Assembly: GCA_012103575.1 (NCBI GenBank)
Contig: WLWN01000001.1
Span: forward strand, 1,676,538 to 1,740,537
Reading direction: 5' to 3'
Length of the DNA: 64,000 nucleotides
Source: Kiritimatiellia bacterium
GTDB lineage: Bacteria; Verrucomicrobiota; Kiritimatiellia; WLWN01
Part shown: positions 13,908 to 58,693 of the stretch, piece by piece
Layout of the letters: each line of letters starts with the position of its first letter
Position numbering within the stretch: position 1 is the first letter of the stretch
Translations under genes and position numbers: made by a program
The notes under the pieces: model-generated
The model's database searches: none
Seen by the model: only the letters and a program-made list of their open reading frames with translations
Told to the model about the DNA's origin: nothing

Positions 13908-15053
13908 GAAGACAAAAAAAAGAGAAAGACATGGAACAAATCAAGAGTAGTATTCATCCCCGAAAAGGCAAGCATTTGACACAGAAAGAACGGATCATGA
14001 TTGAAACAATGCTCAAAAACCGAGGACGTCCTTTGGAGATAGCCAGCTATCTGGGAAGGCATCGTCGAACCATAGAGCGCGAAATTAAACGTGGGGAGGT
14101 AGAGCATTTCGATACAGAGCTGCGAAAGAAGAAAGCATACAGCAGTGATCGAGCCCAGGAACTTCATGATCTAAATGCGACGGCCAAGGGACCTGAGCTT
14201 AAGCTTGGAAAGCATCATGAAACGGCCGTGTTTATCAGCGAGCACATTCTTGTTCACAAACGCTCACCCGATGTGGTTGCTCCTTTGCTTAAACAAGAGC
14301 AGAGACCTGCAGCGGTGAGTACAAAAACGCTGTATACCTATATTGACCAAGGTCTCATCCCGGGGGTGAGCAACGAGTCCCTATGGGAAAAACGAAAACG
14401 GATAAAACGAAAAAGACGTGCTATTAAGCGGGTTAAAAAGCAACATGCCCGAAGGACCAGTATCGAAAAACGACCTAAGACCGTAGAAAAACGCGAGGAA
14501 TCTGGGCACTGGGAATTGGATTTGATCGTCGGCGGAAAAGGAACTTCAAAACCGGTTTTAATGACGTTAGTAGAAAGAAAGACCCGAATGCTAAGGGTGA
14601 GAAAACTTTCGGATAAAACACAGGCATCGGTTCTGCAGGCCCTCAAAGCGATCGAAAGATCGATGGGAGTTGGCCCATTCAGATCGATGTTCAAGTCGAT
14701 TACAGCCGATAACGGGAGCGAGTTTCTCGACGTGGAGCAGATGGAACGTTCCGGATTTAGCAAAAAGAGACGTGTTAAACTCTATTATGCTCACCCGTAT
14801 TCTTCCTGGGAACGAGGCTCCAACGAAAATGCCAACCGTATGGTTTGTCGTTTCGTCGCCAAAGGAGACAACATCGGAAAATATACCATCGACCGTATTG
14901 GTGAGATTGAAAAATGGATTAACAACTATCCTCGCAAGATCCTAGAATACAAACCCGCACAGGAGTGTTTCGATTTGGAGATCGCCGCATGAACAGAAGC
15001 TCTCAGGTCCATTTTTTGCGGCATTTAATTTTACAATCCACCTTGGTGATTTG
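13908..15053 (+). mobile_element. IS30-family insertion sequence, type B, copy with a truncated left end
   Basis: Near-identical to 42078-43283 from 13908 onward. The right end (ggcatttaattttacaatccacc) is shared with the other copy, while the left terminal repeat present in that copy (ttgtaatattaaatgcc) is missing here. Confidence 0.7.
13931..14992 (+). CDS. IS30-family transposase, type B
   Basis: 353-aa ORF with an HTH, HWELD and DNGSEF DDE motifs. It is 98% identical to 42188-43234, apart from a 15-bp indel in a KRKR repeat. Confidence 0.85.
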   Translation: MEQIKSSIHPRKGKHLTQKERIMIETMLKNRGRPLEIASYLGRHRRTIEREIKRGEVEHFDTELRKKKAYSSDRAQELHDLNATAKGPELKLGKHHETAVFISEHILVHKRSPDVVAPLLKQEQRPAAVSTKTLYTYIDQGLIPGVSNESLWEKRKRIKRKRRAIKRVKKQHARRTSIEKRPKTVEKREESGHWELDLIVGGKGTSKPVLMTLVERKTRMLRVRKLSDKTQASVLQALKAIERSMGVGPFRSMFKSITADNGSEFLDVEQMERSGFSKKRRVKLYYAHPYSSWERGSNENANRMVCRFVAKGDNIGKYTIDRIGEIEKWINNYPRKILEYKPAQECFDLEIAA

Positions 15054-15136: not shown

Positions 15137-16196
15137 CTGCAGACTCAACTTACAAGTGCAAAACCGAAGCTGTCCATCATTTCTTTGGGCGTTCTATATT
15201 CTAAGCATTTTCTCGGTCTATTATTCAGTAACTCCACAGCCATCTCAACTGAGCGGAGCTGCGGGCAGCAAAGTCGGTTTTCTTCGGGAAAAACTGGCGA
15301 AGCAAACCATTCGTGTTTTCGTTGCTCCCTCTTTGCCAAGGGTTTCTCCCTTCAGCAAAGAAAATGGGGGTTGCTATTTTTTTCTGTAGTTTAGCATGGC
15401 TGGCAAACTCCATGCCATTATCTACAGTCACCGTTTTACAGGGGAGCCCTGAATCAGCGAACTGAGGTACGGAACGGTTGACCGATTCGGCATTGCATCG
15501 AGGTAAAAGATCGGCGATGAGATATCGAGTCGCTCGATCTACTAGAGTGACTACACAGGCCTCTTTTCTCGTTTGGCCCTGAATAGTGTCACCTTCCCAA
15601 TGGCCTGCCACCTTGCGACTTTCACCCTCTTCGGGGCGTTGGTCAATCATCGTTTGGTTGTGTATACGTGAATGGCTTTTCCGAGTCGCTCGTTTTTTCT
15701 TTCCGGGGCCACGCAGGTATTTTCGGTAGCCAGCCCCTCTTGGACTGTACAAGTAGCGGTAGATCGTCATTCGACTGATGGGAGGGTCACCTTCTAGCTT
15801 TCTTCGACCTTCAACCTGTTCTGGAGACCAATACTTCGCCAGGAGAGTCTCCACTTGTTCTTTGCTAGCTCCCATCACTTTTTGAGGCTTTCGAGCTAGC
15901 TGTAATCGGCTTTGAGCCAGGCCATTTGCGGGTCTTGGGTAATAGCGGCCACGGACTCGATTACGGCGAAATTCGCGCCAAATAGTCGAGGGGGATCGGC
16001 CCAGGTGACGGCCAATTTGAGATAAGCTATATTTTTCTTTTAGCATCTGGGCTATCACTTCTCGTTCATAACGGTTTAAATGTTCGTAGGTTCGTGGCAT
16101 TCTATGTTCTCCTTTGGGGAGGGTCAGATACCCAAAGAATGAACTATGCTGCGGACCTTTGCACTTGTATTGTTACTCTACCAAAAACGTAGTGTT
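15137..16196 (-). mobile_element. IS30-family insertion sequence, type A, copy 2
   Basis: The same terminal sequences as 104-1170 are present. The flanking DNA differs. Confidence 0.8.
15225..16100 (-). pseudogene. IS30-family transposase, type A, with a frameshifted C-terminus
   Basis: Identical to 113-1069 except that the last ~30 aa shift frame. The intact C-terminus (VELLNNRPRKCLEYRTPKEMMDSFGFALVS) is encoded by the overlapping ORF 15145-15339. Confidence 0.7.
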
Positions 16197-17300: not shown

Positions 17301-17380
17301 AGGTTCCTAGGCTATATCGGTCCCAAATAGTGCATAAAAGTCGCATCAAAAATATTCATGTCATTGAAGCATATATTGAC

Positions 17381-19037
17381 CTGAATCCGTTAGCTATCGC
17401 TTCGGAAGGCGTTTTGGGGCTCAAAAGCTGAAAATTTTTTCCTTGAGATGCTCGCTTTTGGGCGGATTGGGACCGGCAAGTATCACCCTGATGAATTTTT
17501 TGAGCGTACAGGTCAGATTCACTCTGATTTGGCCATTTTGGGGCGTAGGCCTCCTTGGGCAGTCGCCTTAGAGTATTGTTAAAGGTGCACGGAGGGCTAT
17601 GCGAAGGAATGGGCAATATCTTGTATCACTTCAAACCAGCGACAACGCTTGCCAAAGTGAAGTTCAATTCGTCCGGCGTGGCGGACCAATCGAACCGCGC
17701 AATAAACGATATTTTTGAGAACCGTTTTGATTCGCCAGCGCGGGATGTTGATTTTCTGCGGGGCAAGCCCAGCCCGTTTGATGACCTCTTGGCCAAGACC
17801 GCGCAATAGGTTGAAGGCCACCATGGCGCATAACAGAATAATCTTATTGGCACAGGGTCTCCCCGAAGGCAATCGCTCAACATCAAGATCGCTTTTGAGT
17901 TCACTGTGGTACTGCTCGCTGGGGCCATGTCCATGATAGAGATCTAGCACCGTCTTGGCACGACAAGAGAGGTTCGTCCACCAGGTGTTCACCTCAAGTT
18001 TAGGAACCAAAAGTTTCTGACCATCGATATCGATGGTGCGTTCAATCACTTCGAAGGCCACCGGGACACAAGGGTGGTTTTGGTCACCACCGGGATGGAA
18101 ATGATCGAAAAAGCCTGTGTAAACGTTCTTGCCTTCACGACTGTCTTGTTTGTCTCCAACTCGGCGTGCAAGGGCCAGCATTTGTTCAGGACATTCGCGG
18201 CGAGGATTTCGCTTTACGATAAAATAATGATCCCCAAAAGCGTCGAAGTTATCGGCCGCAGCGTTGCCACTATCAAGCCGAAGCAAACATTTTCCACCCA
18301 GGCCCAGGGTTTGGAGCGTTTCAACGCTGCGGGCAATAAACGCGGTCGTTCCCGACTGACAATGTTGTTTGCCGGGTCGAAGTTCGCACTCAAGCATGTG
18401 GCCTTGAGTGCCCACATAGGCAAATATCGGGGCGTAACCATCATGGCCCTTATAGGTGTAGGAAACGCCTTCTTTCGAAGAGCCTGAGTGATCCAAAGGG
18501 CTCACATCGATATCGACGGGAACAAGATCAAGCCCTTCGACATCTACCTAGCCAAAGGGGCCCGAGGAAAGAAGTTCGGTGTTGAGTTTGCGTAGCCCCA
18601 CATGGGTTCTGGCTGGGGGCAGGTCGTCGAAACGACGTCGGAACACCGGCTCAGAGGCTACTTTTTTAACTCCCCTTTTTAAGTCTAAAGGCATTCATAA
18701 AAATCTCATCACCCCGGTACAGGTCGATATCATTGAAATCGGTTCGACCGTTGCAAAGTAAGCCGATCTGGGTAAGGAGGATCTCCCGATCAGAGATCGC
18801 ATCGGAGCGGCGTGGTTGAAAATTGGAGGGAAGAATCCGTTGAGCATGATCCTCAAGCAGCAGGCCGCAAAGATGATTTCCGCTTGTGCTGTTGAGTTCG
18901 CTCTTGCCAGTCTTTATTTTATATTGTTTCATATACACACCTGTTGGGGTGGGGTTGTTTGTTTGAATACGGGTATGCTCCCCGCTTTAGCCCAACAGGT
19001 AATGAAAAATCGTCAGATTTTATCTGACGGATTCAGG
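17381..19037 (-). mobile_element. IS1380-family insertion sequence, copy 1
   Basis: The terminal inverted repeats are CCTGAATCCGTCAG and CTGACGGATTCAGG. The element is flanked by ATTGAC on both sides, a candidate target-site duplication. It is near-identical to 56075-57730. Confidence 0.75.
17597..18938 (-). pseudogene. IS1380-family transposase, frameshifted
   Basis: The N-terminal 90 aa are encoded by 18666-18938 and the C-terminal 302 aa by 17597-18505. The two parts lie in different frames. Confidence 0.7.
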
Positions 19038-19198
19038 ATTGACTATAAGGTTCGGTAAGCTCAAAATTTTTCTTAAAATCCCAACTTGATCTTTTTATGG
19101 GGTCTATTTTACCTTAGTTATACTCAACGTTTAGCTAAAATTTTTTTGGAAGGAAACATTCCGCAAGAACGAAAAAAATCTCGAAACAGAATAGGGAT

Positions 19199-19275
19199 TG
19201 GTGGCGAAGGTGGGACTCGAACCCACGACACATGGCTTATGAAGCCACTGCTCTAACCGACTGAGCTACTTCGCC
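19199..19275 (-). tRNA. tRNA with anticodon CAU (elongator tRNA-Met or tRNA-Ile2)
   Basis: The minus-strand sequence reads GGCGAAGTAGCTCAGTCGGTTAGAGCAGTGGCTTCATAAGCCAC...GGGTTCGAGTCCCACCTTCGCCACCA. This is a full cloverleaf with anticodon loop TTCATAA and an encoded CCA. The G1-C72 pair argues against initiator identity. Confidence 0.85.
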
Positions 19276-19324
19276 ACAAAAAACATATAACCGTAAGGAA
19301 GTATAATAGGCTTTGTCAATACTC

Positions 19325-19360
19325 AGCCATTCTAATTTTGATTTCAAAATTAGAATGGCT
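19325..19360. repeat. Perfect 36-bp AT-rich hairpin (16-bp stem, 4-nt loop) placed directly upstream of the tRNA promoter region
   Basis: The sequence is AGCCATTCTAATTTTGATTTCAAAATTAGAATGGCT. It is followed (in the tRNA direction) by TTGACA about 35 bp before the tRNA 5' end. A related copy lies at 37683-37718. Confidence 0.6.
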
Positions 19361-19545
19361 CGTTCTTTGTTGTTGGTTCTTCTTTAATGGGAAGTTATTT
19401 TTTTAGTACAGATCAAATATGATCATGAACATATATAACCTACATTCAGCGATAAGGAACAGCCCGTCGTACCCATCCCTTGATCCGCCTAGCATTAGGT
19501 AAAGAATCTTGACCCACTAATAGATAACTAATAACTATTCCCAAC

Positions 19546-28271: not shown

Positions 28272-28446
28272 AAGAAGTTCAGGTTTTCTGAAAACGCTAC
28301 TTGGACCTTCGTCAAAAGCGCGAATTCAAGTAGTAAGTGCAATATTCTTTGAGATAAGAGAAATGAAAACTTTATTGAACATTTGGTTAGGAGTTTTGTA
28401 TCCACGGGTTTTTCTGGGTCTATTATTAGAGCGCTTCACGATTGAG

Positions 28447-29417
28447 GTGTCGCGATGTAGCACGAAGAAAACCAGCCGATTACCTCGTCGGGAGAAACCT
28501 CTTCGAACGCTTGTGTGAGCGCTTCAGATAGTTCCTGCGGGCTGCAAGGCTGCCCAACCGATTCTTTATCTTGCCCCACATTTTTTCAATGGGGTTGGAA
28601 TCGGGGCTGTAGGGTGGAAGGAATCTTACATGGGCCCCACATGACTCAATGAGTTTAATGACCTTGGGATTGTGATGGACGCGAAGATTGTCCATGATGA
28701 CGATGTCTTCAGGTGAAAGAGTCGGGAGAAAAACCCGGCGAATATATTCTCCAAAAACAGCCGTGTCTGTCGCCCCCTCCCTCTCCATGGCCGCTGTTGT
28801 TCCGTCCAGGCGGACTGAAAAAATCAAGGTGGTGGTACACCAATGTCCATGAGGCGTTTTGGCAAAAAGCCTGTTCCCGCCCAACGCCCGGCCCCGCAGA
28901 CAAGTCATATTCGTTTTCGCCCCGGATTCATCAATAAAGACAAGGCGACTTGGATCAAGTTTGGCTACCTCTTGGATCCACTGCTTTCTCAAGAGATTTA
29001 CATCCGCCCGGTCTTGCTCGCTGGCGTGAAGCGTTTCTTTTATACCGGCAGCCCAACCGATTCAACGCCCGCTGTACGGCCATGATCGACCCCTTCACGC
29101 CGCTCATGTTCTTGAGTTCTTCAAGCGTTGCATCGGGATGTTTGCCCCCCAGTTGAGCCAACGCCTTGAGCTGCTCGCTGTAGAGGGCCTGACGATGCCC
29201 ACGCGGTCGGGGAGCGGTCTGTCCGGTTTCGTTGAAACGAGAGAGCCCACGCTGAAACGTTCTAAGATCTACACGATAAGAAGATACGATATCGGCCTGG
29301 GAACCTTTGCCCATTTTGTAGGCATCTATCGCACGCCGCCGGATTTCTGCTGTTGCTATACTCATGTCATGGAGCATAGATCTTCTAAAGAGGCATTTCA
29401 ATCGTTAAATGCTCTAG
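28447..29417 (-). mobile_element. IS630/Tc1-family insertion sequence, copy 1 (degenerate)
   Basis: Ends TAGAGCGCTTCACGATTGAG and CAATCGTTAAATGCTCTAG form terminal inverted repeats next to TA. The transposase frames (28480-28992 and 28955-29401) are frameshifted and carry the DDE region HWCTTTLI...VRLDGT. A second copy lies at 45006-45949. Confidence 0.7.
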
Positions 29418-29926
29418 CTTTGCCTTGGCCATTGAGCTCACGAAATTTGTATATAGCAACAGTACTTTCTTTACTGCTCTCTTGGTATGCAAAAAATGCA
29501 GCTACGTATGGCGACCGAGTCCAATCTAGTAAAGGCGTCGGAAAACCATGATGCCGAATATAAACCATAAATCCGTAATTCTCAGGAGATGAAGGTTCAT
29601 CTCTATTCTCAAATACTGTTTCCCAGTTTTGATCTGTTAGCGATTCAAATGCCGCGATTGTCGGCTTAAGGATCTTTGTGTTGTATTCTATGATTGCAAG
29701 TAGTTCATCGTTTCGTCTTTCAAGTGTCGATTCAAGTTTCCACGAAGCACATTTATGGCCCCTAAAGAGGAGCTCGGAAAAATAGTAGTCCGCTTTGCTA
29801 AGGCGCTGCTCACCCTTTTGTAATTCCTTTTAGCCCAAATGGTTCGTGCAGAAAACCGCGTTTAACTGACGGATCCAGGATAGAGTTATCTGGAATTAAT
29901 TCGGTATATCTTTTTGACATAGACAT
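29398..29926 (-). pseudogene. Disrupted small gene encoding an FRG-motif protein, sitting in the cassette position upstream of intI
   Basis: There is a 144-codon open frame (29398-29829) with no start codon, reading ...YYFSELLFRGHKCASWKLESTLERR...YIRHHGFPTPLLDWTRSPYVAAFFAY.... An ATG-initiated 15-codon segment (29926 downward) lies in another frame. A partial 163-bp-family repeat sits between the two segments. The C-terminal codons run into the IS630 terminal repeat. Confidence 0.4.
29813..29879. repeat. Partial (one-arm) copy of the 163-bp palindromic repeat family
   Basis: ttttgtaattccttttagcccaaatggttcgtgcagaaaaccgcgtttaactgacggatccagg matches one arm of the elements at 44474, 51319 and 58518. 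The left boundary is approximate. Confidence 0.5.
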
Positions 29927-37386: not shown

Positions 37387-37682
37387 GGCAGTCGGGATTG
37401 TAAAATCTGGAGAAAGATAAAGCCCAAGGTCTTGAAGGCGAGGTGAATTACTTTAAGGCGCACCGCGACCCTATAGATTATCAGGCTGCTAAATGAGGGG
37501 GTTGCCCTAAAGGGTCTGGAGCCATGGAATCGACCTGTGCCCAATTCCAAACCCGATTCAAACGAACCGGTCAATTTTGGATACCTCCTAGAAAGCATCA
37601 CTTAATCGCTCTGGAATTAGCACGGCAGAATCATGACGGGGATGATATTTGGTAGTATGACCCAGATGCGCCTCAAATAACT

Positions 37683-37718
37683 AGCCGTTCTAATTTTGAT
37701 TTCAAATTTCAAATGGCT
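37683..37718. repeat. Imperfect copy of the AT-rich hairpin, again directly upstream of a tRNA promoter-like hexamer
   Basis: AGCCGTTCTAATTTTGATTTCAAATTTCAAATGGCT, with TTGACT at 37724-37729 and tRNA-Val starting at 37768. Confidence 0.45.
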
Positions 37719-37767
37719 GTGACTTGACTTCGTAAAGCAGACCGTTAAGCTACCCCTCTTATTTTTC

Positions 37768-37842
37768 GGGCGGTTAGCTCAGCGGGAGAGCGGCTGGTTT
37801 ACACCCAGTAGGTCACAGGTTCGAATCCTGTACCGCCCACCA
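37768..37842 (+). tRNA. tRNA-Val (anticodon UAC)
   Basis: GGGCGGTTAGCTCAGCGGGAGAGCGGCTGGTTTACACCCAGTAGGTCACAGGTTCGAATCCTGTACCGCCCACCA. Anticodon loop TTTACAC; CCA encoded. Confidence 0.9.
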
Positions 37843-41288: not shown

Positions 41289-41544
41289 GATATCCTCCGG
41301 GTTGTGGTTAGTTGTGGAGGCTACGGCCCGAGGTGGCTATACAATGGATTCTGTCCTGGGGGAGTCGCCTGGAGCGCTCGCCAATGAATGATGGCCAACT
41401 CAGACCCAAACTTCGTATGGGGCACAAGGCACCAATATCTTTAGGGGGGCTTAACTGCCGTAGCTTTCATGACATTTACACCTTACCGGACTCCAGTTTC
41501 AACCCTGAATGATCCAGCAAAGAGACCATGCTGGTGGCGAAACT

Positions 41545-42030
41545 TCGGGGAGACTCTGTGCCAATAAGATTATTCTGTTATGCGCCATGGTGGCCTTCAA
41601 CCTATTGCGCGGTCTTGGCCAAGAGGTCATCAAACGGGCTGGGCTTGCCCCGCAGAAAATCAACATCCCGCGCTGGCGAATCAAAACGGTTCTCAAAAAT
41701 ATCGTTTATTGCGCGGTTCGATTGGTCCGCCACGCCGGACGAATTGAACTTCACTTTGGCAAGCGTTGTCGCTGGTTTGAAGTGATACAAGATATTGCCC
41801 ATTCCTTCGCATAGCCCTCCGTGCACCTTTAACAATACTCTAAGGCGACTGCCCAAGGAGGCCTACGCCCCAAAATGGCCAAATCAGAGTGAATCTGACC
41901 TGTACGCTCAAAAAATTCATCAGGGTGATACTTGCCGGTCCGAATCCGCCCAAAAGCGAGCATCTCAAGGAAAAAATTTTCAACTTTTGAGCCCCAAAAC
42001 GCCTTCCGAAGCGATAGCTGACGGATTCAG
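41545..42030 (+). mobile_element. 5'-truncated IS1380-family copy (3' 490 bp only)
   Basis: Matches the last ~490 bp of 56075-57730, including the CTGACGGATTCAGG terminus. It encodes the C-terminal 101 aa of the transposase (ORF 41509-41814). Confidence 0.6.
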
Positions 42031-42077
42031 GATATTGCTATTTTTCAAAAAGTCAATTTTTTGTTTCAAAAAAATCT

Positions 42078-43283
42078 GAGAATTGTAATATTAAATGCCC
42101 AAAAGAAGATATTGTAAAACAGGAGTGTTCCATGCCGAAATCTTCTAGATTTAGAAACTCGACAGAAGACAAAAAAAGGAGAAAGACATGGAACAAATCA
42201 AGAGTAGTATTCATCCCCGAAAAGGCAAGCATTTGACACAGAAAGAACGGATCATGATTGAAACAATGCTCAAAAACCCAGGACGTCCTTTGGAGATAGC
42301 TAGCTATCTGGGAAGGCATCGTCGAACCATAGAGCGCGAAATTAGACGTGGAGAGGTAGAGCATTTCGATACAGAGCTGCGAAAGAAGAAAGCATACAGC
42401 AGTGATCGAGCCCAGGAACTTCATGATCTAAATGCGACGGCCAAGGGACCTGAGCTTAAGCTTGGAAAGCATCATGAAACGGCCGTGTTTATCAGCGAGC
42501 ACATTCTTGTTCACAAACGCTCACCCGATGTGGTTGCTCCTTTGCTTAAACAAGAGCAGAGACCTGCAGCGGTGAGTACAAAAACGCTGTATACCTATAT
42601 TGACCAAGGTCTCATCCCGGGGGTGAGCAACGAGTCCCTATGGGAAAAACGAAAAAGACGTGCTATTAAGCGGGTTAAAAAGCAACATGCCCGAAGGACC
42701 AGCATCGAAAAACGACCTAAGACCGTAGAAAAACGCGAGGAATCTGGGCACTGGGAATTGGATTTGATCGTCGGCGGAAAAGGAACTTCAAAACCGGTTT
42801 TAATGACGTTAGTAGAAAGAAAGACCCGAATGCTAAGGGTGAGAAAACTTTCGGATAAAACACAGGCATCGGTTCTGCAGGCCCTCAAAGCGATCGAAAG
42901 ATCGATGGGAGTTGGCCCATTCAGATCGATGTTCAAGTCGATTATAGCCGATAACGGGAGCGAGTTTCTCGACGTGGAGCAGATGGAACGTTCCGGATTT
43001 AGCAAAAAGAGACGTGTTAAACTCTATTATGCTCACCCGTATTCTTCCTGGGAACGAGGCTCCAACGAAAATGCCAACCGTATGGTTCGTCGTTTCGTCG
43101 CCAAAGGAGACAACATCAGAAAATATACCATCGACCGTATTGGTGAGATTGAAAAATGGATTAATAACTATCCTCGCAAGATCCTAGAATACAAACCCGC
43201 ACAGGAGTGTTTCGATTTGGAGATCGCCGCATGAACAGAAGCTCTCAGGTCCATTTTTTGCGGCATTTAATTTTACAATCCAC
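42078..43283 (+). mobile_element. IS30-family insertion sequence, type B, complete copy
   Basis: Left end ttgtaatattaaatgcc pairs with right end ggcatttaattttacaatccacc. It abuts the IS1380 fragment on the left and the recR start on the right. Confidence 0.75.
42188..43234 (+). CDS. IS30-family transposase, type B
   Basis: 348 aa; see 13931-14992. Confidence 0.85.
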   Translation: MEQIKSSIHPRKGKHLTQKERIMIETMLKNPGRPLEIASYLGRHRRTIEREIRRGEVEHFDTELRKKKAYSSDRAQELHDLNATAKGPELKLGKHHETAVFISEHILVHKRSPDVVAPLLKQEQRPAAVSTKTLYTYIDQGLIPGVSNESLWEKRKRRAIKRVKKQHARRTSIEKRPKTVEKREESGHWELDLIVGGKGTSKPVLMTLVERKTRMLRVRKLSDKTQASVLQALKAIERSMGVGPFRSMFKSIIADNGSEFLDVEQMERSGFSKKRRVKLYYAHPYSSWERGSNENANRMVRRFVAKGDNIRKYTIDRIGEIEKWINNYPRKILEYKPAQECFDLEIAA

Positions 43284-44438: not shown

Positions 44439-44473
44439 AAATTTGAAAGATAACAAGAGGGCTCTGTCTTTTT

Positions 44474-44636
44474 CCTGGATCCGTCAGTTAAACGTGGGAT
44501 TTCTGTGCGAATGGTTTGGAGGCAAAAGGTTGCAAAAAAACGCAGGCGCACCCGCTGGGTACGTCGAGGCTTTTTTGTAATTCCTTTTGGCCCAAATGGT
44601 TCGTGCAGAAAACCGCGTTTAACTGACGGATCCAGG
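44474..44636. repeat. 163-bp palindromic repeat element, copy A
   Basis: Terminal arms CCTGGATCCGTCAGTTAAACG and CGTTTAACTGACGGATCCAGG, with a largely self-complementary interior and a central palindrome. Copies lie at 51319-51481 and 58518-58680 (the latter inverted). Confidence 0.7.
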
Positions 44637-45005
44637 TTTTTGTGTACAAAAACTGAATCCGACCGTAGGGCTCGAAATAGAACCTACTCCAAACGCCCTC
44701 TGTCTGACTTTCATTGGCACAGAGGGCGAGAGGGTTCGTGGAGATTTTCTGTTGACCCCCTCCAACTTCTGAAATGAAACATGGCTTAAACATATTTCAT
44801 CCTTCTCTCAGATCAAGCGCCTTCGCCTAGGCGTAGGTTGTGTGATCCGCATAAATATTGGCAAGTTAGGAAGGTCCGGTTGAATTTGGTCTCTCGTAAT
44901 TATCGCACAAGTCCTTTAAAAGCGTGCGAAAACTGTGAACCGGTATGCCTTCATAAGCAGGCTTGAGATAGTTAATCAACTGGATCATCGTTTTCAATAA
45001 CTTAG

Positions 45006-45949
45006 AGCGCTTCACGATTGAGGTGTTGCGATGTAGCACGAAGAAAACCAGCCGATTACCTCGTCGGGAGAAACCTCTTCGAACGCTTGTGTGATCGCTT
45101 CAGATAGTTCCTGCTGACTGCGGGCTGCAAGGCTGCCCAACCGATTCTTTATCTTGCCCCACATTTTTTCAATGGGGTTGGAATCGGGGCTGTAGGGTGG
45201 AAGGAATCTTACATGGGCCCCACATGACTCAATGAGTTCAATGACCTTGGGATTGTGATGGACGCGAAGATTGTCCATGATGACGATATCTTCAGGTGAA
45301 AGAGTCGGGAGAAAAAGTTGTTCCGTCCAGGCGGACCGAAGAAATCAAGGTGGTGGTACACCAATGTCCATAAGGCGTTTTGGCAAAAAGCCTGTTCCCG
45401 CCCAACGCCCGGCCCCGCAGACGAGTCATATTCGTTTTCGCCCCGGATTCATCAATAAAGACAAGGCGACTTGGATCAAGTTTGGCCACCTCTTGGATCC
45501 ACTGCTTTCTCAAGAGATTTACATCCGCCCGGTCTTGCTCGCTGGCGTGAAGCGTTTCTTTTATACCGGGAAACCGATTCAACGCCCGCTGTACGGCCAT
45601 GATCGACCCCTTCACGCCGCTCATGTTCTTGAGTTTTTCAAGCGTTGCATCGGGATGTTTGCCCCCCAGTTGAGCCAACGCCTTGAGCTGCTTTCTGCTG
45701 TAGAGGGCCTGACGATGCCCACGCGGTCGAGGAGCGGTCTGTCCGGTTTCGTTGAAACGAGAGAGCCCACGCTGAAACGTTCTAAGATCTACACGATAAG
45801 AAGATGCGATATCGGCCTGGGAACCTTTGCCCATTTTGTAGGCATCTATCGCACGCCGCCGGATTTCTGCTGTTGCTATACTCATGTCATGAAGTATAGA
45901 TTTTCTAGCGAGGCATTTTCAATCGTTAAATGCTCTAGTACTCCTCCAA
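45006..45949 (-). mobile_element. IS630/Tc1-family insertion sequence, copy 2 (degenerate)
   Basis: Same terminal repeats as copy 1. Transposase fragments 45012-45278 and 45292-45885 lie in different frames. Confidence 0.7.
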
Positions 45950-46236
45950 AATTAAATTGGCGAGTTAGGGTCAAATTAGACTGTTCCCAATGACGACAGG
46001 GGCCTTCCACCATCACAGCAACGCTGTGTAGGCATAGAGCCTGGGGTTTCAACCCCAGGAAGACTTGTGCCCTGTAGGGGCACTGTCTATTCTTCAGGGC
46101 GCAATCAGATGTGTTCCTGTTTCATTCCTGGGGTTGAAACCCCAGGCTCTATGCCTTTGTCCCTTTGGGACAATCCATAGGGTCAGTAAATCATTCACCC
46201 CCAATTCGCCAATTTAATTTTGGAGGAGTACTAGTG
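45947..46236. repeat. Roughly 290-bp nested palindromic element (MITE-like) abutting the IS630 end
   Basis: 29-bp perfect outer inverted repeats CTAGTACTCCTCCAAAATTAAATTGGCGA. 29-bp inner inverted repeats GGCATAGAGCCTGGGGTTTCAACCCCAGG, each itself a hairpin. A central hairpin GTGCCCTGTAGGGGCAC. Confidence 0.6.
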
Positions 46237-46377
46237 CACGATAAAGTTTACGGTTAAGTGATGAAGAATGAATATATTCGAGTGGGAGCAGATATTTTAA
46301 TCAAACAGGTTCTAAGGTGAGGGTCTTTGGTCAGAAGTCAGGACCACCGTTTTTCTTTCACGCAGCTTGCTGCATGA

Positions 46378-48736: not shown

Positions 48737-49009
48737 CTTTTATGAGTCAACGAATCTTTACGGCTCCTAACCGTTTTTCGCTACGGTGTCATTTTTTGTG
48801 AGGCAATTCGAGAGGCTCCAAATTTCAAATTTTGGTTTGCACCGCAAGATAATGATTGTTAGCGTATTTTTCTAGCTGTGCTAGACGGGGAGGTAGCGGT
48901 GCCCTGACTCCCGCGTAAGCGGGATGACCTGCAATCCGCTGTAGCAGGGTTTAATTCCTGAGTAAGATATCAACCTAGGATGATACATGCTATAGATAGG
49001 TGTTGATAG

Positions 49010-49112
49010 CTAGACCCTATGTGGCGAATACGGGTGAACCCCGTCAGGATCGGAAGATAGCAGCGGTAAGTCATGTTGTTCGGGTACCGTAGTGTGTTCT
49101 GGCTAGAGTCTT
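49010..49112 (+). ncRNA. ffs: Candidate signal recognition particle RNA (4.5S/ffs) upstream of dnaX
   Basis: 49042-49063 reads GTCAGGATCGGAAGATAGCAGC, which matches the conserved domain IV motif GUCAGGuCCGGAAGgaAGCAGC including the GGAA tetraloop. ffs lies upstream of dnaX in many bacteria. The ends are approximate. Confidence 0.5.
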
Positions 49113-49208
49113 GAAATAGTGGTTGTACGCCGATCGTTGGTGTCGAACAAAGGTGCACAGCTTTTTTAACAAATATTCGATATTCGAATTTCAACAGAGA
49201 GGGTTCAT

Positions 49209-51302: not shown

Positions 51303-51318
51303 TGGGGAGACAAATAAT

Positions 51319-51481
51319 CCTAGATCCGGCAGCTAAACGTGGGGTTTCTGTGCGAATGCCTTGGAGACAAAAGATTGCAAAAAAACGTAGGCGCACCCAC
51401 GGGGTGCGTCGAGGCTTTTCTCTAATTCCTTTTGGCCCAAATGATTCGTGCAGAAAACCGCGCTTAACCGCCGGATCTAGG
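51319..51481. repeat. 163-bp palindromic repeat element, copy C (diverged)
   Basis: Same architecture as copy A. The arms (CCTAGATCCGGCAGCTAAACG and its complement) carry paired compensatory changes relative to copy A. It fills the ybaB-mutL spacer. Confidence 0.7.
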
Positions 51482-51510
51482 ATAATCAATAGGAATGTAC
51501 AGATACCCCC

Positions 51511-54655: not shown

Positions 54656-55371
54656 ATGATTTGCTCTAAGATACCAAATACATTTTTTGAAGGAATACAA
54701 ACACTGGATATTTCCCTTTCGGACCACTCGCTTAACCAACTTAATCATTACTTATGTTTGCTGCTGGAAACCAATAAAAAGTTTAATCTTACCGCAACCA
54801 AGGAACCGAATGAAGCGTGGCAACGCCATATATTAAATAGCTTAATACTCGTCCGATTTCTAGGTGATGGGGAGAAGGTTATAGATATAGGGAGTGGTGG
54901 AGGGCTTCCAGGTATCCCCTTGGCCATTGTACGACCTGATTTAACAATGACACTGCTTGAAGCTACGAAAAAAAAGCTGAATTTCTTGAAACAATTATAA
55001 ACACACTGAACCTCAGACGCGTTCAGGTGATTTCGACCCGAGCTGAAGTTTTAGGTCACGATCCTCTGCACAGGAAGAGGTATAACACCATGCTTTCCCG
55101 AGCCCTATCCCCTTTACCCATTGCGCTTGAATACATGGCTCCCTTTACACATCCCACGGGCAGACTATTAGCGATGAAAGGCCAAAAGGCGGATGCGGAA
55201 ATAGCGCAATCCAAACGTGCGATGAAAATGCTTAAAGTCAATTTTGTGAAAAAACATTTATTTTTTGTAGAGACTGAAAACGAAACGTGTGTAGTAGAAC
55301 TGATGCCCGTTAAAGAGACACCCGGTATGTATCCACGCTCTGTGGGAACCGCTAAGCAAAAACCATTATGA
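54656..55371 (+). pseudogene. rsmG: 16S rRNA m7G527 methyltransferase RsmG (GidB) with a -1 frameshift near 54993
   Basis: 54656-55000 encodes the SAM-binding part (VIDIGSGGGLPGIPLAI ... LLEATKKKLNFLKQ). The C-terminal part (IINTLNLRRVQVISTRAEV...) lies in the frame of the ORF at 55027. The shift is not in a homopolymer. Confidence 0.7.
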
Positions 55372-56047: not shown

Positions 56048-56074
56048 GGTTTTTGATTGATGAAAGAATTAGAC

Positions 56075-57730
56075 CTGAATCCGTCAGATAAAATCTGATG
56101 ATTTTTCATTACCTGTTGGGCTAAAGCGGGGAGCATACCCGTATTCAAACAAACAACCCCACCCCAACAGGTGTGTATATGAAACAATATAAAATAAAGA
56201 CTGGCAAGGGCGAACTCAACAGCACAAGCGGAAATCATCTTTGCGACCTGCTGCTTGAGGATCATGCTCAACGGATTCTTCCCTCCAATTTTCAACCACG
56301 CCGCTCCGATGCGATCTCTGATCGGGAGATCCTCCTTACCCAGATCGGCTTACTTTGCAACGGTCGAACCGATTTCAATGATATCGACCTGTACCGGGGT
56401 GATGAGATTTTTATGAATGCCTTTGGACTTAAAAAGGGGAGTTAAAAAGGTAGCCTCTGAGCCGATGTTCCGACGTCGTTTCGACGACCTGCCCCCACCC
56501 AGAACCCATGTGGGGCTACGCAAACTCAACACCGAACTTCTTTCCTCGGGCCCCTTTGGCTAGGTAGATGTCGAAGGGCTTGATCTTGTTCCCGTCGATA
56601 TCGATGTGAGCCCTTTGGATCACTCAGGCTCTTCGAAAGAAGGCGTTTCCTACACCTAGAAGGGCCATGATGGTTACGCCCTGATATTTGCCTATGTGGG
56701 CACTCAAGGCCACATGCTTGAGTGCGAACTTCGACCCGGTAAACAACATTGTCAGTCGGGAACGACCGCGTTTATTGCCCGCAGCGTTGAAACGCTCCAA
56801 ACCCTGGGCCTGGGTGGAAAATGTTTGCTTCGGCTTGATAGTGGCAACGCTGCGGCCGATAACTTCGACGCTTTTGGGGATCATTATTTTATCGTAAAGC
56901 GAAATCCTCGCCGCGAATACCCTGAACAAATGCTGGCCCTTGCACGCCGAGTTGGAGACAAACAAGACAGTCGTGAAGGCAAGAACGTTTACACAGGCTT
57001 TTTCGGTCATTTCCATCCCGGTGGTGACCAAAACCGCCCTTGTGTCCCGGTGGCCTTCGAAGTGATTGAACGCACTATCGATATCGATGGTCAGAAACTT
57101 CTGGTTCCTAAACTTGAGGTGAACACCTGGTGGACGAACCTCTCTTGTCGTGCCAAGACGGTGCTAGATCTCTATCATGGACATGGCCCCAGCGAGCAGT
57201 ACCACAGTGAACTCAAAAGCGATCTTGATGTTGAGCGATTGCCTTCGGGGAGACTCTGTGCCAATAAGATTATTCTGTTATGCGCCATGGTGGCCTTCAA
57301 CCTATTGCGCGGTCTTGGCCAAGAGGTCATCAAACGGGCTGGGCTTGCCCCGCAGAAAATCAACATCCCGCGCTGGCGAATCAAAACGGTTCTCAAAAAT
57401 ATCGTTTATTGCGCGGTTCGATTGGTCCGCCACGCCGGACGAATTGAACTTCACTTTGGCAAGCGTTGTCGCTGGTTTGAAGTGATACAAGATATTGCCC
57501 ATTCCTTCGCATAGCCCTCCGTGCACCTTTAACAATACTCTAAGGCGACTGCCCAAGGAGGCTTACGCCCCAAAATGGTCAAATCAGAGTGAATCTGACC
57601 TGTACGCTCAAAAAATTCATCAGGGTGATACTTGCCGGTCCCAATCCGCCCAAAAGCGAGCATCTCAAGGAAAAAATTTTCAACTTTTGAGCCCCAAAAC
57701 GCCTTCCGAAGCGATAGCTGACGGATTCAG
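56075..57730 (+). mobile_element. IS1380-family insertion sequence, copy 2
   Basis: Termini CCTGAATCCGTCAG and CTGACGGATTCAG, flanked by ATTAGA on both sides. The transposase is split between 56173-56445 and 56696-57514, in different frames. Confidence 0.75.
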
Positions 57731-57758
57731 ATTAGATATAAATAGTTTATTAGAATGT

Positions 57759-58493: not shown

Positions 58494-58517
58494 GAGGCTC
58501 TTAAATTCTTGTTATAG

Positions 58518-58680
58518 TCCTGGATCCGTCAGTTAAACGCGGTTTTCTGCACGAACCATTTGGGCCAAAAGGAATTACAAAAAAGCCTCGACGCACCCAG
58601 CGGGTGCGCCTGCATTTTTTTGCAACCTTTTGCCTCCAAAGCATTCGCACAGAAATCCCACGTTTAACTGACGGATCCAG
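58518..58680. repeat. 163-bp palindromic repeat element, copy B (inverted relative to copy A)
   Basis: Near-identical to copy A in reverse-complement orientation. The central palindrome reads CGCACCCAGCGGGTGCG. Confidence 0.7.
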
Positions 58681-58693
58681 GATAGTGTCAAAG

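Follow-up and report, generated by a model that had tools for sequence, protein, structure and literature searches.

A 163-bp MITE with IS1380-type ends, recently expanded in a Kiritimatiellia sponge symbiont

Introduction

Insertion sequences (ISs) of the IS1380 family, of which ISEcp1 and ISPme1 are members, produce target duplications of 4 to 5 bp. ISEcp1 carries the left inverted repeat (IRL) CCTAGATTCTACGT and is flanked by AT-rich 5-bp direct repeats (PMC6061673), and the transposition pathway of the family is still unknown (PMC9330008). A full-text literature search on IS1380 and MITEs turned up no MITE described as derived from IS1380. Terminal repeats of the Tn3 type are about 38 bp long and begin with GGGG, and we know of no element mobilised by an HUH enzyme that has a target-site duplication or terminal inverted repeats of the type described below.

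The sponge Mycale hentscheli harbors a Kiritimatiellaeota symbiont, ‘Candidatus Patea custodiens’, which is the producer of pateamine (PMC7157528). The assemblies JAAHTG and JAAHTH are metagenomes of the same sponge (PMC7196800), and two papers on M. hentscheli metagenomes make no mention of the repeats studied here. In this work, we analyzed a family of 163-bp palindromic elements present in a 64-kb stretch of Kiritimatiellia DNA, referred to as “the window”, and in related metagenome contigs.

Results

The window carries three full copies of the element and one truncated copy (Table 1). The three 163-bp copies of the original prediction were borne out by both sequence reading and repeat searches; its coordinates hold for copies A and B and were one base off for copy C (placed at 58518-58680), while the arm fragment that it gave as 29813-29879 does exist, with the extent listed in the table. 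The terminal inverted repeat is perfect over its first 21 nt, and the first 24 nt pair with one G-T. Six matches to this 21-nt terminal arm, CCTGGATCCGTCAGTTAAACG, are present in the window at three or fewer mismatches, compared to 0.00 expected from shuffled sequences. Open reading frames of 71 to 101 aa cross each window copy, as was anticipated for spurious ORFs; they are artefacts that extend into unrelated flanks, and the element has no coding capacity of its own. A protein search among 5.8 billion sequences yielded exactly one called protein that matches the element's open frame (P0001, 93 aa). The copies had also been described as starting about 17-36 bp past a stop codon, which suits those in the window (35, 16 and 25 nt) but not the family: over 37 loci, the distance to the flanking ORF varies from about 4 to about 880 nt, and the flanking genes are tandem, divergent or convergent, so that a position just after a stop codon is no general property of the element.

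Table 1. Coordinates of the MITE copies, insertion sequences and other features of the window
Feature	Position	Strand	Target-site duplication	Remarks
MITE copy A	44474..44636	+	TTTTT at 44469-44473 and 44637-44641	163 bp; young subfamily
MITE copy B	51319..51481	+	ATAAT at 51314-51318 and 51482-51486	163 bp; old diverged subfamily; 88% identity to A; ends CCTAGATCCGGC...
MITE copy C	58519..58681	-	ATAGT (+ strand) at 58514-58518 and 58682-58686	163 bp; young subfamily; inverted relative to A; 98% identity
Truncated MITE	29816..29879	+		Right arm alone (element positions 100-163); 98% identity to A
IS1380-family IS, first copy	17380..19037	-	ATTGA at 17375-17379 and 19038-19042	1658 bp; candidate relative of the MITE's transposase source; transposase split into three ORFs; ends CCTGAATCCGTTAGC... 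and CCTGAATCCGTCAGATAAAAT...
IS1380-family IS, second copy	56074..57731	+	TTAGA (or ATTAGA) at 56069-56073 and 57732-57736	99% identity to first copy; transposase gene broken
IS1380-family IS, partial	41543..42031	+		489 bp; one end; IS30-family IS adjoining
IS30-family element	113-1069
IS30-family element	15225-16100
IS30-family element	13931-14992
IS30-family element	42188-43234
IS630-family fragment	28426-29398
IS630-family fragment	45002-45918
Nested palindrome	45931-46238			About 308 bp; adjoins IS630 fragment
Short palindrome	19315-19369			55 nt
tRNA gene	19202-19275	-
Short palindrome	37674-37728			55 nt
tRNA gene	37768-37839	+
rsmG (gidB), first part	54656-55000			114 aa
rsmG (gidB), second part	55027-55371			114 aa
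Signal recognition particle RNA	48876-49160			Large (Bacillus-type); 111 bits; upstream of dnaX

Copy B lies between a ybaB-like gene and a mutL gene, and the insertion is shared by a locus of a separate assembly (L060). Contigs of the fragmented assembly were reached by exact look-up of the MutL protein encoded beside copy B (NKB24470.1). When the 24-nt end pattern was scanned against metagenome contigs, at least 37 loci were obtained, all of them in the assemblies WLWD to WLWI and JAAHTG/H; the host, a Kiritimatiellia MAG, is probably ‘Ca. Patea custodiens’. When copy A was compared by BLAST with the window and the retrieved loci, 58 matches were obtained, 38 of them full-length, which represent at least 37 distinct full-length loci, with truncated copies besides. 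A profile search for more-diverged copies in the DNA examined found no further full-length ones. Another set of 59 loci, from the genome collection (L001-L059), was discarded as chance matches, the 17-mer used, with two degenerate positions, being too short.

Thirty-three young copies are 96-99% identical to copy A, with a mean difference of about 2%; most copies show 0 to 4 base differences from the consensus, which is matched exactly at seven loci. This low divergence among most of the copies indicates a recent burst. The interior of the element is also a frequent end point of contigs in the metagenome assemblies.

A degenerate short derivative of about 85 bp (positions 1216-1303 of L062), with both ends recognizable and the interior deleted, is located upstream of rpsO-pnp, at a distance of 150 bp from a full copy. 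Two loci from other sponge samples (L100, positions 1242-1404, and L104, positions 905-1067) were compared with window positions 44474-44641; their homology to the window ends exactly at the right end of copy A, where GTCTA, followed by a PDZ/S41 peptidase gene, replaces the duplicated TTTTT. This junction reflects either recombination between copies of the MITE or an assembly chimera at the repeat.

Target-site duplications had been left to be looked for in the original prediction, and they are present: a perfect, site-specific 5-bp direct repeat flanks the element at 29 of the 37 distinct full-length loci (metagenome loci plus window), and three further loci have one with a single mismatch. 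Offset controls gave none (0/37). One locus has a 6-bp duplication (ATAATA). The duplicated pentamers contain 12% G+C, compared to 33% for the flanks and 44% for the window. The surrounding bases are also biased, with A at position -2 in 20 of 29 cases, C at -1 in 13, G at +1 in 17 and then T in 13, which hints at a palindromic target, A-C-[WWWWW]-G-T, at the insertion sites. All copies are intergenic, and no empty site was found among the loci examined. Site-specific duplications, low divergence and contigs that end within the element characterize a MITE that has been amplified recently.

The window holds two full copies and one partial copy of an IS of the IS1380 family, the largest ORF of which matches the NCBIfam model NF033539 (IS1380-family transposase) with 214.9 bits at a cut-off of 180, and Pfam PF13701 as well. 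A match to an IS end, which the original prediction had named as a result that would speak against it, was found at this IS. The IS ends read CCTGAATCCGTCAGATAAAAT and CCTGAATCCGT(C/T)AGCTATCG, and the end of the 163-bp element (CCTGGATCCGTCAG..., arm as given above) agrees with the IS end at 13 of the first 14 bases and at 17 of 21. The 11-nt motif CCTRRATCCGK was found at 11 places in the window (0.24 expected), all of them ends of the MITE or of IS1380-type ISs, and the IS30- and IS630-family elements of the window do not have ends of this type. Based on the shared ends, the motif, the 5-bp duplications and the precedent of ISEcp1, we place the MITE in the IS1380 family and propose that it is mobilized in trans, most likely by an IS1380-family transposase.

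The transposase genes of both full IS copies share a frameshift (around 56417-56445) and an in-frame stop (around 56561). The protein database contains 162 distinct transposase fragments from the 3.1-Mb contig that also encodes NKB24470.1, those listed measuring 91-304 aa. Neither the window copies nor any of 55 cluster members examined from the host genome encodes an intact IS1380 transposase; one of the 55 is an IS1380/IS630 chimera (P0145), the others being fragments. The nearest intact homologues, of 440 aa, share 78% identity and were obtained from other samples. These fragments suggest either a massive expansion of the IS followed by decay, or non-canonical expression. Because the ends of the IS and the MITE diverge at position 5 and past position 14, the actual partner could be another IS1380 relative that has escaped detection, or the source of the enzyme may now be extinct. 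Past the terminal 21 nt, similarity between the interior of the MITE arm and the IS end is marginal (z about 2.3, with 18 of 500 shuffles reaching the observed score), so that derivation from this particular IS is unproven.

The 163-bp element is thus less than about 500 bp long and non-coding, has terminal inverted repeats and a target-site duplication of fixed length, is present in many near-identical copies and shares its ends with an IS, all features by which MITEs are recognized. It is a MITE of a new family with IS1380-type ends, recently expanded in a sponge symbiont.

Each full copy folds as one long hairpin, as originally described. For copy A, the free energy is -103.9 kcal/mol on the + strand (z -13.2) and -83.6 kcal/mol on the opposite strand (z -10.9). 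The central palindrome that had been reported, CGCACCCAGCGGGTGCG, forms the apex in the copy at 58519 (+ strand reading), and the apex as a whole is a G+C-rich stem between A7 and T6. A terminator scan gave a weak terminator-like match at the apex on one strand, and a promoter scan of the element found no promoter-like site. The element had been said to belong to no recognized family, and an Rfam scan agrees, with no match at the gathering threshold and, in a permissive scan, nothing above noise (microRNA-precursor models at E values of 0.3-6).

Paired arm changes had been noted in the diverged copy, and those in the 51319 copy are real (4:162, GC to AT, and 11:155, TA to GC). Besides these, seven single substitutions in this copy disrupt pairing, and three of the seven fall within the terminal arms. 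Covariation was counted in an alignment of 30 copies against a consensus hairpin of 70 pairs. Eight pairs are changed on both sides, compared to 1.3 +/- 1.0 in shuffles, none of 500 of which reached eight, and to 0-3 in structures slid by 1-3 columns. Three of the eight (4:162, 11:155 and 13:153) are in the terminal repeats, and A4:T162 is found again at other old loci; since one transposase has to accept both ends, changes of these pairs need no structural explanation. The other five (57:108, 58:107, 59:106, 75:91 and 77:89) lie in the interior, outside the ends that a transposase is likely to bind, and a pure “ends only” model fails to explain them; the three adjacent pairs may represent a single event. 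Four old copies (B, L066, L082 and L095) account for all eight covarying pairs.

Among inserted copies, there is no sign of purifying selection for pairing. Substitutions in young copies are about equally frequent at paired and unpaired positions (35 in 140 and 8 in 23, respectively), and transitions within Watson-Crick pairs gave 11 G-U and 16 A-C oppositions. Folding energies are -75 to -90 kcal/mol for old copies, compared to -104 to -107 kcal/mol for young ones. The consensus hairpin is 20 kcal/mol more stable on one strand because of six G-U pairs, and the count of G-U pairs against A-C oppositions in the consensus, 6 versus about 2, is not significant. We considered this strand asymmetry as a possible sign of RNA function and rejected it, since the counts are not significant and it fades in old copies (+1.9 to -10 kcal/mol). 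With respect to co-directional flanking genes, the MITE is in the same orientation in 10 cases and in the opposite one in 8, with nine further divergent and five convergent contexts. The selection on RNA or cruciform structure that the original prediction had read from the paired changes is thus not supported for inserted copies: neutral decay, random orientation and weaker hairpins in old copies give no support to host-level selection on RNA structure.

Several other features of the window were recorded (Table 1). The 64-kb window is very rich in mobile elements, with two kinds of IS30-family element in two copies each and two IS630-family fragments in addition to the IS1380 copies. A second nested palindrome, unrelated to the MITE, has outer arms of 40 nt (93% complementary) and perfect inner arms of 32 nt; it is single-copy in the DNA examined and may be another non-autonomous element. 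Two related 55-nt palindromes with the core GCCATTCTAATTTTGATTTCAAAATTAGAATGGCT each adjoin a tRNA gene and are probably terminators or a tRNA-linked repeat. The rsmG gene is split, its orthologue in L060 likewise (114 + 93 aa), and L060 has an isolated 86-aa HATPase_c fragment nearby; both are signs of gene decay in the symbiont. A signal recognition particle RNA gene was also recognized.

Discussion

Taken together, we read the 163-bp element as a non-autonomous MITE with IS1380-type ends that is mobilized in trans, has gone through a recent burst and decays neutrally once inserted, and we give this joint reading a probability of roughly 0.85. Most likely, an IS1380-family DDE transposase in the same genome would recognize the terminal repeats of about 21-24 nt in trans; on integration, AT-rich intergenic DNA would be cut with a 5-bp stagger, and repair of the cuts would leave the 5-bp duplication on each side. 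The burst took place in a Kiritimatiellia symbiont of M. hentscheli, together with expansion of the IS itself. After insertion, the copies decay neutrally; as side effects, they give rise to spurious ORFs, interrupt assemblies and may recombine with one another.

The full-length hairpin follows from the palindromic layout of the element. Pairing of the arms appears to be retained as long as a lineage continues to transpose, since a single transposase has to accept both ends, and possibly also for some additional structural reason. As the covariation comes only from old copies and inserted copies decay neutrally, pairing seems to be constrained in the transposing lineage only, and not by the host. 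For the interior, we infer that pairing could be due to: a requirement of transposition; a foldback origin of the element; or correction of one arm by the other. A stronger proposal is that the end-to-end hairpin itself is required for propagation, with the transposase acting on folded DNA, either a cruciform or a single strand, or with hairpin RNA or DNA protecting or targeting the element. If so, the interior compensatory changes between subfamilies would amount to selection on structure in the transposing lineage, and IS1380-family transposition would thereby gain its first described structural requirement; we regard this proposal as unlikely.

A different explanation would be that the host has selected the element as a structured RNA or regulatory element that is co-transcribed with adjacent genes and serves as an mRNA stabilizer, an RNase target or a bidirectional terminator, roles that have been reported for some ERIC and Correia copies. 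The very stable hairpin, the eight compensatory pairs with their far lower shuffled and slid controls, the better folding of the consensus on one strand, the three window copies close behind stop codons, and the G+C-rich apex between A7 and T6 with its weak one-strand terminator-like match would all suit such a role. However, the element has no orientation bias (10 times with and 8 times against its neighbors) and is found in divergent, convergent and tandem contexts alike; young copies have no excess of pair-preserving substitutions, hairpins weaken and strand asymmetry fades with age, the G-U excess over A-C is not significant, Rfam and promoter scans found no match, and the covariation is confined to four copies. 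We therefore hold this explanation to be quite improbable, even though individual copies could have acquired an RNA or regulatory role as a secondary effect.

Two further kinds of mobile element must be weighed against a MITE of the IS1380 family. AT-rich 5-bp duplications are also a hallmark of Tn3-derived inverted-repeat miniature elements (TIMEs), which depend on a Tn3-family transposase (PMC4133298), but the ends of the present element begin with CCTGG and not with the 38-bp GGGG-type repeats of Tn3, they match the IS1380-family IS of the window at 13 of 14 bases, and no Tn3-family transposase was present among the repeat-associated window ORFs scanned, all of which makes this origin very improbable. 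Still less can be said for a REP/REPIN-like or IS200/IS605-type palindrome moved in single-stranded form by a tyrosine (HUH) transposase, with the hairpin as the signal. Such an element would account for the full-length palindrome and for covariation inside the stem, but no RAYT or TnpA(Y1) gene was found among the window ORFs scanned, and mobilization of the HUH type is disfavored by the 5-bp duplications of the MITE loci (29 of 37 loci); there is hardly any chance that this is the correct explanation.

The IS1380-type MITE is therefore a familiar kind of selfish DNA rather than a new structured RNA, and it offers a clean, data-rich example that is tied to the IS1380 family. The burst of IS and MITE copies, the broken transposases and the split housekeeping genes fit the genome of a recently host-restricted symbiont. 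The element also helps to explain the fragmented assemblies of the pateamine-producing symbiont and the small “hypothetical proteins” called across repeats. In practical terms, it should be masked in annotation, and it might help to tell strains apart between sponge specimens.

Among the known systems, Tn3-derived TIMEs resemble the MITE in being non-autonomous and in having 5-bp duplications in AT-rich DNA (PMC4133298), and differ from it in that the MITE ends start with CCTGGATCC and that no Tn3-family partner was found. The likeness to ISEcp1 is closer. The ends of the MITE begin with CCTGGAT, or CCTAGAT in subfamily B, compared to the IRL of ISEcp1, the tip of subfamily B agreeing at 7 of 7 bases (9 of 14 overall), and 5-bp duplications flank the MITE and the window IS as they do ISEcp1, those of the MITE and ISEcp1 being AT-rich. 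Unlike IS1380-family ISs, the MITE is only 163 bp long and encodes no transposase; its interior has no clear similarity to the window IS, and it is palindromic throughout, whereas the ends of that IS are complementary over about 14 nt only.

The original comparison to ERIC and Correia elements was sound in kind, since these too are dispersed, intergenic and palindromic, that is, MITEs. Like ERIC, Correia/NEMIS, RUP and MITEPye1, the present element is short, non-coding, intergenic and multi-copy, with long stem-loops, terminal inverted repeats, target-site duplications and spurious ORFs. Its ends look unlike the Correia and ERIC consensus sequences, and it belongs to none of these families. 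No evidence of orientation-dependent effects was found for the MITE, in contrast to ERIC, Correia, RUP and MITEPye1, and its duplication is 5 bp long, whereas that of Correia, RUP and ERIC is TA. Finally, its sequence is unrelated to that of any of these four, its partner belongs to the IS1380 family and not to IS630 or IS1182, and its host is a Kiritimatiellia sponge symbiont.
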